Part shown: positions 8,509-57,575 of the stretch, piece after piece
How the letters are laid out: each line of letters opens with the position of its first letter
Position numbering within the stretch: position 1 is the stretch's first letter
Source of the DNA: Escherichia coli
GTDB lineage: Bacteria > Pseudomonadota > Gammaproteobacteria > Enterobacterales > Enterobacteriaceae
Assembly (NCBI RefSeq): GCF_003334385.1
Contig: NZ_QOWN01000006.1
Length of the DNA stretch: 64,000 bases
Direction: 5' to 3' (one strand)
Made by a program: the position numbers and the translations under genes
The notes under the pieces: generated by a model
Told to the model about the DNA's origin: nothing
Database searches by the model: none
What the model saw: only the letters and a program-made list of their open reading frames with translations

Positions 8509-10656
<2,148 letters not shown>

Positions 10657-10670
10657 AGGTCTGGTATTAC

Positions 10671-10770
10671 TGCCGGATGCGGCGTGAACGCCTTATCCGG
10701 CCTACAAAACCTTGCTAATTCAATATATTGCAGGGACTATGTAGGCCTGATAAGCATAGCGCATCAGGCA
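10671..10770. repeat. RIP-type element: two inverted REPs flanking an IHF-like site
   Basis: tgccggatgcggcgtgaacgccttatccggcctaca ... aattcaatatattgca ... tgtaggcctgataagcatagcgcatcaggca. Confidence 0.75.
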
Positions 10771-10791
10771 GCTTTACGTTTGCATAACCTC

Positions 10792-10811
10792 AGCGCCCGT
10801 TTCCGGGCGCT
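10792..10811. terminator. GC-rich hairpin in the cmoB/torZ convergent gap; possible terminator
   Basis: agcgcccg-tttc-cgggcgct inverted repeat; no strong U-tract on either strand. Confidence 0.3.
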
Positions 10812-10820
10812 ATTCACGTC

Positions 10821-13250
10821 TTACGCCTGAACAGCTGGCTGATCAAACGCCGTTAACTTCGGTGCATTGCCCGTATATTTTTCGATATACACCAACGCTG
10901 AGTTACCGGCACAGGCATTTGCCAGCTGCGAGCTGGGGATATCCGCCGTTAACACGTTCGCACTGCCGTTTTTACACAAGCCATTTTCCAGATCTGGCCA
11001 TGCACCTTCATGCACGCATACCACGCCTTTTTTGATCCCGTCAGTCACCACCGCGCCTGTCAAAATCTGACCACGTTTGTTCCAGACACGCACCAGATCG
11101 CCATTCGCAATACCAAAGCGTGCAGCATCTTCGGTGTGAATAGTGATTGGTTCACGATCGGCGATCGCATATTTTTTACGCAGTTCCGCATAGTTAAGCT
11201 GACTGTGTAAACGGTGTGCCGGATGTGCGGTCAGAAGCTGTAACTGCTTCTCGTCGGCGGTACCTTTCCATTCATCAGGAGCCAGCCAGGTTGGGTGTGC
11301 CGGGCAATCCTTATAGCCAAATTTTTCCAACGTTTTTGAATAGATTTCAATTTTGCCGCTTGGCGTACCCAGCGCATTTTTCACCGGATCGGCGCGGAAA
11401 TCACCATAACGAACGTACTGTTCGTTCTTCTCGCTGCGGCGCATTTCGATCAGTTTATTTTGCTGCCAGAAGGCATTAAACATTGGCATAGTGACGCGTT
11501 GCGCACGGGCACCTTTCTGAGCGGCATCATAGAAAAATTTCAGCCACGCCATTTCATCTTTACCTTCGGTATAGATCTCTTTTCCGCCAGGTTTGAGTAA
11601 TTCCGCAAGATCGGCAAACACGTCAAAATCGTTACGCGCTTCAAATTGCGGAGCAACAGCCTGCTTCATCGGCACAATATGCTGGTTGCTGTAATCACCG
11701 GTCATCGTCAAGTCATTGCGCTCAAACGATGTGGTGATCGGTAATACGATATCTGCGTGTTTGGCTGCTGCGGTCCAGTAGCATTCAGAAACGACGATCA
11801 TCTCCGGTTTCTGCCATGCTTTAATCAGACGATTAGTATCCTGGTGATGGGTAAAGTTACCGCCACCCGCCCACCAGATCATTTTGATATTCGGATACGT
11901 TTGTTCTTTACCGTTATGCTGATATTTGCCGCCAGGATTTTCCAGCGCATCGACGATACGGGCAACAGGAATCGCCGTCATTCCGCCATCATCAGCGGCC
12001 TCGCTGGCATGTCCGGCAATCGCCGCAGACATTTCCGGCAGCACGCCGCCAACACGCGTCGGGTTGCCACCGTTGGAGTAATGATAAGAGAAACCAAAAC
12101 CGCCGCCCGGTGTACCAATCTGCCCTAACATCGCCGCCAGCGTCACCAGCATCCAGTGTTTCTGTTCACCATATTGCTGGCGCTGAATTCCCCAGCCTGC
12201 CATCAGCATTGTGCGATTCGCCGCCATCAGTTCAGCGAGTTTGACTATCTGCGCTTCCGGTACGCCAGTAATTTCCGCCGCCCAGACCGCGCTCTTCGGC
12301 GTATTATCGCTCTTACCTGTCAGATACTCTTCAAACTGCGGATACCCGGTAGTGTATTTTTCAAGGAACACTTTATCGTGTTTGCCTTGTGTCATCAGGG
12401 TATGCGCAATCCCTAACATCAGTGCCACGTCGGTGCCCATATTCGGCGCGATCCAGGTGGCATTATCGTCAAAGAATTCGATGGTTTCGGAGCGGATAGG
12501 ATCAATGGCAATCACTGGTTTGCCAGATTTTTTCAGCTGATGGAAGTATTCCAGCCCTTGCTCATCGGTACTGCTCCAGGCAATTTTTAAGGTATTCAGC
12601 GGGTTCATTCCCCACAGCACCACAACCTGGCTGTTTTCCAGAATCAGCGGCCAAGAGGTCTGCTGTTCATACACCTCTACAGAACCGACCACATGCGGCA
12701 TGATCACCTGTGCTGCCCCGGTTGAATAATCGCCGCTATGCCCGGAATAACCGCCCGCCAGGTTCATATAACGTTGCAGTAAGGTTTGCGCTTTATGCAA
12801 CACGCCAGAAGAGCGCCAGCCGTAAGATCCGGCAAAAATGGCCGATGGTCCGTTAGCTTTACGAATACGATCATGTTGCTCATGAATCAGTTTTAATGCC
12901 TGTTCCCAGCTCACCTGTACATAGGTATCTTCGCCACGACCTTTCGCCGGTTGCAGTGGATTATCGAGATAGCTTTTTCTCACCATCGGATGCTGAATAC
13001 GCGCCGTGGTGTGTACCTGATCCGCCGCCGTAGACTGTAAGGAATTCGGTATGGTTTTCGCCAGCGCGCCTGTTGAAGAAACAATCTTGCCGTCCTTCAC
13101 TTCTACGTTCATCGCTCCCCAACGTCCCGCGGTGAGGATTTTACCGCCCTTCTCTTCTGCCCATGCGGGGAGCGGTGCTGCCGATGTCACCACCAGCGCT
13201 CCAGCGGCAATACCGCTGTGTTTAATAAATTCACGTCTTGTTAATGTCAT
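10821..13250 (-). CDS. torZ: Trimethylamine-N-oxide reductase 2, molybdopterin catalytic subunit TorZ
   Basis: Start set at ATG 13250 ([17 protein letters not shown], Tat-type signal), about 809 aa; recognised as TorZ/BisZ. Confidence 0.93.
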
Positions 13251-14375: not shown

Positions 14376-14685
14376 AGATTCCTCTAATTAAATTACTGGA
14401 CACCGAAATCATTGTATAATTAAATATACAACGAATTAACCGCTTGCATAATTAGGCACAACACTGCCTGAAACAATCGATAAAGAATATGATTTATTAC
14501 AATGTAATCATTAATTGCTAAGGAATAACCCAGTTGCTATTTAGAATATATATTTATCAGTTTTAGTAATTTAAATCCCATAATTAATGTGAATATATAC
14601 AATATTTTTAGCACAACGCTATGCGCACTGTCACCCGCTCAACAGATCACGGTTATCGTTCGTTTTTTATACTGTTCAGGGATAA

Positions 14686-14719
14686 AAAAAGGCCCCTGTT
14701 GAAATTGCAGGGGCCTGGT
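14686..14719 (-). terminator. Rho-independent terminator downstream of cutC
   Basis: Minus strand reads ggcccctgcaatttcaacaggggcc followed by ttttttt. Confidence 0.7.
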
Positions 14720-14762
14720 ACGAGCAAGCATCATATTGGGCGACATGATGCAACGGTAAAAA

Positions 14763-15518
<756 letters not shown>

Positions 15519-22563: not shown

Positions 22564-22628
22564 TGTCGGATGCGGCGTCATCGCCTTATCAGACCGCCTG
22601 ATATGACGTGGTCACGCCACATCAGGCA
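22564..22628. repeat. REP-like palindromic element downstream of cheZ
   Basis: tgtcggatgcggcgtcatcgccttatcagacc followed by an imperfect palindrome. Confidence 0.6.
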
Positions 22629-28965: not shown

Positions 28966-28992
28966 TTATCGGCAAGGAGGGGGGAAACTTTA
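28966..28992 (-). promoter_or_regulatory. Sigma-28 promoter of the tar-tap-cheRBYZ operon
   Basis: Minus strand reads TAAAGTTT, 11-nt spacer, GCCGATAA, about 30 bp upstream of the tar ATG. Confidence 0.85.
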
Positions 28993-29023
28993 TTGCTGAT
29001 GCCACCCGCCGCGAAATTGAAAT

Positions 29024-29052
29024 AAAAAACCCGATGCGCAGATCATCGGGTT
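29024..29052 (-). terminator. Rho-independent terminator downstream of cheW
   Basis: Minus strand: cccgatg-atctgcg-catcggg hairpin followed by ttttttatttc. Confidence 0.7.
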
Positions 29053-29078
29053 CATTTCAATTGAGGAAATCGGGAGAA

Positions 29079-47281: not shown

Positions 47282-47368
47282 TGGTACCCGGAGCGGGACT
47301 TGAACCCGCACAGCGCGAACGCCGAGGGATTTTAAATCCCTTGTGTCTACCGATTCCACCATCCGGGC
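47282..47368 (-). tRNA. leuZ: tRNA-Leu (anticodon UAA)
   Basis: 87-nt reverse-complement match to the leuZ sequence I recall (GCCCGGATGGTGGAATCGGTAGACACAAGGGATTTAAAATCCC...CCA). Confidence 0.93.
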
Positions 47369-47380
47369 TCGGGAAGAAAG

Positions 47381-47454
47381 TGGAGGCGCGTTCCGGAGTC
47401 GAACCGGACTAGACGGATTTGCAATCCGCTACATAACCGCTTTGTTAACGCGCC
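47381..47454 (-). tRNA. cysT: tRNA-Cys (anticodon GCA)
   Basis: 74-nt reverse-complement match (GGCGCGTTAACAAAGCGGTTATGTAGCGGATTGCAAATCCG...CCA). Confidence 0.93.
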
Positions 47455-47508
47455 AAATTCTTCAGGCCTTTCAGCCAGACATCCGCTTGACGCCGATGTC
47501 TTTTAAAC

Positions 47509-47584
<76 letters not shown>

Positions 47585-57289: not shown

Positions 57290-57379
57290 ATGATTATCCG
57301 TTTCTGCAGGGTTTTTAATCGGACGATTAGTGGGTGAAATGAGGGGTTATTTGGGGGTTACCGGTAAATTGCGGACAGA

Positions 57380-57402
57380 AAAAACCCCGCCGGTGGCGGG
57401 GA
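57380..57402 (-). terminator. Rho-independent terminator of fliC
   Basis: Minus strand: ccccgcc-accg-gcgggg hairpin followed by ttttttc. Confidence 0.8.
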
Positions 57403-57431
57403 AGCACGTTGCTGACAAATTACCATTCATG

Positions 57432-57524
<93 letters not shown>

Positions 57525-57575
57525 CATCAGGCAATTTGGCGTTGCCGTCAGTCTCAGTTAATCAGGTTAGGACGA

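Follow-up and report, generated by a model that had tools for sequence, protein, structure and literature searches.

The repeat between cmoB and torZ of Escherichia coli is very probably a single-copy BIME-1 element that is transcribed and varies among strains

The convergent genes cmoB and torZ of Escherichia coli are separated by a pair of inverted REP sequences, which raises the question of what kind of element this is and whether it does anything for the genes on either side. The stretch of DNA analysed here, 64,000 nt of one E. coli contig (hereafter the window), had previously been read from its letters, and that original prediction described a RIP element made of two inverted REPs around an IHF-like core. 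We find that the repeat belongs to an already known, ordinary and long-described class, of which it is a typical copy. It is very probably a single-copy BIME-1 (RIP/RIB), in which a Y-type and a Z1-type REP stand head-to-head around a 35-nt L linker with weaker conserved flanks, giving a unit of ~130 nt that is transcribed, strain-variable and presumably non-autonomous. The features of the locus, in window coordinates, are as follows.

9685-10656, plus strand: cmoB coding sequence with the stop codon TAA at 10654-10656, from the list of open reading frames and from RefSeq, which annotates the gene on identical DNA of MG1655 and other strains
10657-10671, plus strand: spacer of 15 nt from the cmoB stop codon to the first REP, a poor match to the conserved left-flank motif of the family
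10672-10705, minus strand: Y-type REP, 34 nt, reading GTAGGCCGGATAAGGCGTTCACGCCGCATCCGGC on the minus strand (an "iREP" on the plus strand)
10706-10740, plus strand: L linker, 35 nt, AAAACCTTGCTAATTCAATATATTGCAGGGACTAT, with a match to Rfam RF02751 at 10706-10748
10718-10730, plus strand: IHF-type core ATTCAATATATTG, agreeing with 8 of the 9 specified positions of WATCAANNNNTTR
10741-10770, plus strand: Z1-type REP GTAGGCCTGATAAGCATAGCGCATCAGGCA, the short form of 30 nt, with a GTAG head
10741-10751, minus strand: exact copy of the natural IS621 bridge-RNA target ATCAGGCCTAC, target sequence as given in PMC11208160
10771-10791, plus strand: right flanking motif GCTTTACGTTTGCATAACCTC, 21 nt, homologous to the right flank ATTTTGCGTTTGTCATCAGTCTC of the family
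10792-10811, plus strand: separate GC-rich hairpin AGCGCCCG-TTTC-CGGGCGCT, followed by ATTC up to 10815
10821-13250, minus strand: torZ coding sequence, convergent with cmoB, from the RefSeq annotation and the list of open reading frames

The RefSeq annotation bears out the prediction that cmoB and torZ are convergent neighbours, and the repeat lies outside both genes, between their stop codons, as a single unit with no tandem iteration. The 1,001 bases around it are 100% identical to K-12 MG1655 and many other strains. No repeat feature is annotated at this locus in the MG1655 RefSeq table; GenBank U00096 presumably does annotate elements of the RIP kind. The two REP heads, GTAGGCCKGATAAG without mismatch at 10692-10705 (minus strand) and 10741-10754 (plus strand), face each other across the linker. 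In the Y REP a GTAG head precedes a stem that is interrupted by an AA/GC mismatch and capped by a 4-nt loop, and an inverted-repeat search gave 10672-10685 and 10688-10701 as the arms of this hairpin. The same search paired the left REP with the right one, with 93% complementarity between 10692-10706 and 10740-10754 and 92% between 10670-10681 and 10760-10771. Folded as RNA, the Y REP formed a hairpin of -21.3 kcal/mol (z -4.6) and the Z1 REP one of -12.8 kcal/mol (z -3.3), both relative to shuffled controls, and the whole region folded well below such controls on either strand. The predicted extent of 10671-10770 captures the REP-L-REP core, which spans 10672-10770, but stops short of the full element, as family homology on the right continues to ~10791 and the unit gained or lost as an indel is ~130 nt long.

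BIME-1/RIP elements have been known since the early 1990s and number dozens per E. coli genome. The name BIME-1 belongs to the nomenclature of Gilson, Bachellier and Hofnung, while the name RIP is said to come from Oppenheim et al. in 1993 and RIB from Boccard and Prentki in the same year. As defined in PMC3333891, a BIME-1 has one z1 and one y REP, occurs singly and carries a long, well-conserved L linker that frequently includes an IHF site; PMC2817692 agrees with this definition and, for the binding of IHF to the inter-REP sequence, refers to Boccard and Prentki (1993). The cmoB-torZ repeat has inverse REPs whose GTAG/CTAC heads face the linker, and its 34-nt and 30-nt arms match both consensus arms, with >90% column identity across 113 copies. 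Its linker is 35 nt long, in line with the ~35 nt of the conserved L, it occurs once at this site, and it sits in extragenic DNA at the 3´ end of a transcription unit. For the names Y and Z1 of the two consensus arms we rely on PMC3333891 and on the consensus sequences of these REP types. The anatomy, the 113-copy alignment, the matches to RF02751 and the definition in PMC3333891 all agree with the proposed RIP element. Alignment to the REP consensus, on which the original prediction had staked itself, placed both arms on the Y/Z1 consensus and the linker on L. We saw no substantive difference from other BIME-1 copies, with which the cmoB copy shares the inverse Y/Z1 pair, the single occurrence, the L linker with its putative IHF-type site, the extragenic 3´ position and the outer flanks. 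Conservation is poor in its left outer flank, probably owing to the cmoB stop codon next to it.

The IHF-like core quoted in the original prediction, aattcaatatattgca, is located at 10717-10732, but it is not an exact consensus match. The cmoB copy is one mismatch away from the textbook sequence WATCAANNNNTTR, as counted above over the specified positions, and the family consensus deviates from it identically. An AAAA tract lies 8 nt upstream of ATTCAATATATTG. The L linker presumably resembles the phage lambda H´ IHF site, with which it would have in common an A-tract ~8 nt before the core and the ending ...TTGCA. Binding of IHF to the L linker is a property of the BIME-1 family (PMC3333891, PMC2817692), and by extension from this family literature the linker of the cmoB copy would be bound and bent by IHF on the DNA. 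In the IHF ChIP literature, REP or RIP sequences are unmentioned in the text of Prieto 2012, and the cmoB-torZ locus is unmentioned in Kasho 2021.

The linker is also covered by an Rfam family, RF02751 (ES036/CssrF), to which the cmoB copy scored 45.5 bits and a second copy downstream of fliC 38.1 bits against a gathering score of 37.6; these two RIP copies were the only matches above that score in the window. Both are thus members by score of a family listed as an sRNA, but the 43-nt RF02751 consensus consists of the L linker and the first bases of the Z1 REP, so that the model matches the linker of a DNA repeat. Membership in RF02751 is therefore a statement about likeness at the level of sequence and says nothing on RNA function. 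Elsewhere in the window the Rfam scan returned the MicL sRNA inside cutC (14684-14991, minus strand), C0465 RNA (28982-29059, plus strand) and three tRNA genes (47285-47584, minus strand).

The second copy lies in the 3´ UTR of fliC, and two further features need to be listed.

57434-57533, fliC 3´ UTR: second BIME-1/RIP, with Y at 57434-57467, L at 57468-57503 (36 nt) and Z1 at 57504-57533
~57378-57572, minus strand: orthologue of the FliX sRNA (fliC 3´ UTR), containing the whole second RIP; fliX is annotated in MG1655

The original prediction had proposed that an element of the same architecture is present in the fliC 3´ UTR. The alignment supported this, with Y-L-Z1 in both copies, 87% identity over the aligned region and near-identical REPs, and the second copy falls within the annotated FliX sRNA. 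Its predicted coordinates of 57432-57524, however, need correcting to those listed above, as they omitted 9 nt of the right REP. Like the cmoB copy, the fliC copy is contained in a 3´ UTR that ends at a separate hairpin further downstream. The two differ in orientation relative to the gene that reads into them, with fliC entering through Z1 and cmoB through Y. They also differ in what is known of the RNA: FliX is a documented Hfq-associated regulator, and its shorter form includes one REP sequence downstream of fliC (PMC10578931), whereas nothing comparable was found for cmoB. An intrinsic terminator at ~57380-57402, with the minus-strand sequence ccccgccaccggcggggtttttt, closes the FliX orthologue in the window. 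The alignment with MG1655 stops within fliC (~57855 onward), while the fliA-fliC region is 98.1% identical; judged by sequence, the fliC of the window is a different flagellin (H-antigen) allele from that of K-12.

The other REP clusters in the window provide a contrast. The original prediction had set apart those at 455-597 and 22564-22628 as simpler arrays. They are indeed distinct from the RIP, and neither has an L linker, but "simpler" does not describe them well. The cluster at 461-593 is a BIME-2-like array of Y, a 15-nt linker, Z2, an 11-nt linker and Y, and that at 22564-22628 is a degenerate REP pair lacking both heads. BIME-2 elements combine y and z2 REPs with short linkers in tandem arrays (PMC3333891). 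Arrays of this BIME-2/REP325 type, such as that at 461-593 with its linker of 15 nt, resemble the cmoB copy in being alternating, extragenic and transcribed REPs, but they carry Z2 instead of Z1, have short linkers and tandem structure, lack the L motif and the IHF site, and belong to the class enriched for gyrase cleavage. The cmoB-torZ repeat, with its short-form Z1, its 35-nt L and no tandem repeat, is not a BIME-2.

Within the 64-kb window the linker core TGCTAATTCAATATATTGCA has only two occurrences, one at cmoB-torZ and one downstream of fliC, and a 20-nt version of it, TGCNAATTCAATANATTGCA, likewise has 2 exact copies, the one on the fliC side at 57475-57494. When the exact linker core was searched for in one genome per bacterial species, at least 141 matches at a minimum of 120 loci were obtained. 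Among the 141 matches listed, 114 were preceded by a Y iREP and followed by a Z1 REP, in constant polarity relative to the core, and 15 lacked both REPs; these 15 came from unrelated taxa, in a number close to the chance expectation. Carriers among the matches listed included, as a lower bound, E. coli, E. albertii, E. whittamii, two other Escherichia species and Pseudocitrobacter. From 113 copies a consensus of 136 columns was derived, ...TGCGCTTTGTTCAT / GCCGGATGCGGCGTGAACGCCTTATCCGGCCTAC / AAAATCGTGCAAATTCAATATATTGCAGAAACCAT / GTAGGCCTGATAAGCGTAGCGCATCAGGCA / ATTTTGCGTTTGTCATCAGT, to which the cmoB copy is 80% identical overall and >90% identical in the REPs and the L core, although conservation within the exact 18-base L-core pattern used to collect the copies is partly built in by that selection. 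No such selection acted on the REPs to either side, on linker length or on polarity. The linker measured 35 nt, the mode, in 86 of 116 family copies. Family homology extends beyond the REPs by ~30 nt on the left and ~24 nt on the right, and the cmoB copy has kept the right part and little of the left. A survey of head-to-head REP pairs in 1.07 Mb of DNA found one group with linkers of 33-36 nt (mode 35), all with the L motif, and another with linkers of 7-25 nt unrelated to L.

The family also has a characteristic gene context. At least one gene reads into 67 of the 68 copies that could be evaluated; 33 of these 68 lie between convergent genes, as at cmoB-torZ, and none between divergent genes. 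Orientation relative to the reading gene shows no bias (49 vs 51), which argues for strand-independent functions, such as protein binding to the DNA or generic RNA hairpins, rather than for a strand-specific RNA gene. Among complete E. coli genomes, every one of the 5,426 searched had many matching places, with a median of at least ~39 per genome.

The position of the repeat between two stop codons makes the end of the cmoAB transcript a central question. In the Term-seq data of PMC7815308 (supplementary file 1), a plus-strand RNA 3´ end was mapped in two conditions to MG1655 position 1954572, in a sequence context identical to the one here; this is window position 10815, 4 nt past the hairpin at 10792-10811 and 45 nt past the repeat. 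No RNA 3´ end was called near the cmoB stop codon or at either REP in the Term-seq lists of that study. An end past the repeat means that the cmoAB mRNA reads through it, so that the repeat is internal to the 159-nt cmoAB 3´ UTR and is not its terminator. The hairpin at 10792-10811 lies outside the repeat and is kept in strains that lack it. A promoter and terminator scan of the cmoB-torZ intergenic region found nothing, and this hairpin was missed by the terminator scan because of its poor T-tail in this strain. Stem-loops can define steady-state transcript ends although termination occurs further downstream (PMC6061677), and the cmoAB end at the 10792-10811 hairpin fits this picture. We also noted that supplementary file 2 of PMC7815308 (Adams et al. 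2021) reports Rho-dependent termination antisense to torZ in a region at 1954822, which corresponds to window position ~11065, ~250 nt beyond the cmoAB 3´ end. While the discovery value of the locus is small, one modest use is this placement of the repeat as part of the cmoAB 3´ UTR and not as a terminator.

Several other explanations for the repeat were weighed against these data. An accidental arrangement of palindromes without any family relationship can be dismissed, given more than 100 near-identical copies across several Escherichia species and Pseudocitrobacter, the presence of matching places in each E. coli genome searched, and 2 copies of the 20-nt linker core in the window where dinucleotide-preserving shuffles gave an expectation of 0.15. 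The location between two convergent stop codons, together with very stable hairpins on both strands, would suit a bidirectional terminator shared by the cmoAB and torYZ operons, and transcription attenuation by REP/BIME sequences is reported in work cited in PMC6061677. The mapped 3´ end of cmoAB, however, lies at a different hairpin with no end called at the REPs, neither REP is followed by a U-tract, the scan of the intergenic region for intrinsic terminators was empty, and strains without the repeat retain the 10792-10811 hairpin with a better T-tract. We therefore consider a terminator role very unlikely. The convergent arrangement could also make the repeat a strong DNA gyrase site whose main role is to relieve positive supercoils between the operons, and gyrase does bind and cleave REPs with a preference for the Y type (PMC6379681). 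Yet the cmoB-torZ element contains a single Y REP and is not iterated in tandem, and in the same study gyrase cleavage sites were slightly under-represented at IHF sites and the genome-wide enrichment of cleavage was reported for the BIME-2 arrays (Y/Z2, tandem), not for BIME-1, which makes gyrase recruitment less likely. We judge this main role improbable, and the gyrase assay suggested with the original prediction suits the sister class BIME-2 better than BIME-1 (PMC6379681).

Two readings concern RNA made from the locus itself, and one the translation of cmoB. That the linker is an independent small RNA gene (Rfam ES036/CssrF) might be suggested by the scores of both window copies above the RF02751 gathering score and by the location of the sibling copy within FliX, a validated Hfq-binding sRNA. 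The 43-nt model, however, covers just the L linker and the Z1 head, the scan gave no promoter-like site in the intergenic region, FliX is a fliC 3´ UTR transcript and not driven by a promoter in the repeat, and copies of the family are transcribed in both orientations with no bias, unlike a strand-specific RNA gene, so that we give such a gene hardly any credence. By analogy with FliX, the ~160-nt cmoAB 3´ UTR, comprising Y-L-Z1 and the terminal hairpin, might instead be released as a stable, chaperone-bound regulatory RNA, which seems scarcely more than a speculative prospect; were it so, carrying or lacking the 130-nt unit would set strains apart in a trans-acting regulator, or in the level of CmoB and hence in tRNA cmo5U modification. 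It is unlikely, too, that ribosomes terminating on cmoB are stalled by the first REP, 15 nt past the stop codon, and that less CmoB is made as a result. REPs near a stop codon reportedly impede terminating ribosomes, as described by Liang, Rudd and Deutscher in 2015, with ~15 nt said to be the edge of the effective range. The spacer from the stop codon to the foot of the hairpin is exactly 15 nt, which places cmoB at that edge and makes the spacing borderline. An effect of this kind would in any case be compatible with a BIME-1 in the 3´ UTR and not exclusive of it.

With the repeat taken as a transcribed single-copy BIME-1, what it may do at this site would follow from its family. On the RNA, the two REP hairpins, or a long hairpin between Y and Z1, could act as barriers to 3´ exonucleases for cmoAB, and the REP hairpins may serve as modest transcription attenuators for the same operon. 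Against an effect on cmoAB mRNA stability, the stable 3´ end was mapped to the hairpin downstream and not to a REP. The element would have originated and spread as a non-autonomous unit handled by a REP-associated Y1 transposase (TnpA-REP/RAYT), and the repeat is best pictured as a mildly domesticated selfish sequence that the host tolerates, at a place where its insertion is harmless. TnpA-REP requires a GTAG on the 5´ side of the hairpin and a stem that contains an unpaired mismatch (PMC3333891). Such substrate features are present here, with a GTAG head on both REPs and the AA/GC mismatch in the Y stem. Doublets of REPs mobilised by RAYTs, known as REPINs, are reportedly described by Bertels and Rainey (2011), Nunvar (2010) and Ton-Hoang (2012). 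The cmoB copy resembles them as an inverted REP doublet that acts as a unit, is present in some strains and absent from others, and carries a GTAG head next to a mismatched stem; it differs in that its mobility is putative.

The original prediction had described the repeat as fixed intergenic punctuation. This did not hold across complete E. coli genomes. The surrounding 1,001 nt were present over at least 80% of their length in 4,982 of 5,426 genomes, whereas the repeat region was intact, meaning at least 80% of a 251-nt region in one piece, in only 3,885 (~72%). The whole ~130-nt unit was absent from ~1,100 of the 5,426 genomes (~20%), a figure that combines the difference between the 251-nt and the 1,001-nt counts with a sample taken at even spacing along the ranking. 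A 63-nt query across the empty junction recovered 613 empty alleles, which is an undercount because megablast cannot seed on the second sub-allele. Several hundred genomes carried IS621 or another insertion within the repeat, so that it was absent or interrupted in about a quarter of strains. The empty alleles lack the unit in its entirety, flanks as well as Y, L and Z1, and the locus is correspondingly ~130 nt shorter; as in REPINs, the entire doublet is present or absent as one piece between genomes. Immediately after the cmoB stop codon these alleles read AGATT, or AAATTT in the second sub-allele (sub-alleles TAAAGATTAGCG... and TAAAAATTTAGCG...; natural empty allele sequence TAAAGATTAGCGCCC...), and the downstream hairpin is followed by TTTTC or TTTTT, compared with ATTC in the window. 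Absence from about one fifth of strains indicates that any host function of the repeat at cmoB-torZ is dispensable. A second modest use of the locus is thus as an example of intergenic "punctuation" that turns out to be a strain-variable insertion/deletion unit. A separate species, Escherichia sp. E1V33, in which cmoB has diverged, carries an orthologue of the repeat between the same flanks, with three substitutions across the 100-nt core, suggesting that the unit is old at this site or has been exchanged.

Part of the variation stems from IS621, an IS110-family element with a bridge-RNA recombinase. A break at 10744 was seen in ~7% of complete E. coli genomes, as estimated from even sampling of the ranking, and on this basis IS621 occupies its target in the Z1 REP in several percent of them. 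In NZ_AP027889.1 and NZ_CM168016.1, IS621 is inserted in the Z1 REP with the junction ...ATGTAG-IS621-(AG)GCCTGATAAGC. The sequence ATCAGGCCTAC is the natural IS621 bridge-RNA target (PMC11208160), and the Z1 head at cmoB-torZ is a landing site used by this element. A third modest use of the locus is therefore as a convenient natural example of REP-targeted insertion, with a REP head as the natural landing site of IS621. Other RIP copies also carry IS621 and match the same junction query, so that this query is uninformative for cmoB-torZ. In NZ_CP182331.1, an IS1 family element is located within the 1-kb cmoB-torZ region.

Some observations fall outside the locus. At 34738-34745 the window lacks the IS1H found upstream of flhDC in MG1655 (NC_000913.3 1978503-1979270), and the flanks join at the target duplication, so that the window differs from the MG1655 reference despite its identity to it at cmoB-torZ. 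Complete RIPs were present in tiny contigs of three non-enteric assemblies, Desulfosporosinus sp. OT (262 nt), Methylobacterium frigidaeris (261 nt) and Alkalicoccobacillus porphyridii (720 nt), and these enterobacterial sequences are probably E. coli contamination. Finally, in Escherichia sp. MOD1-EC7003 as many as seven Y-L-Z1 units follow one another in tandem arrays, at periods of 107-230 nt, unlike the single occurrence by which BIME-1 is described in the literature (PMC3333891).
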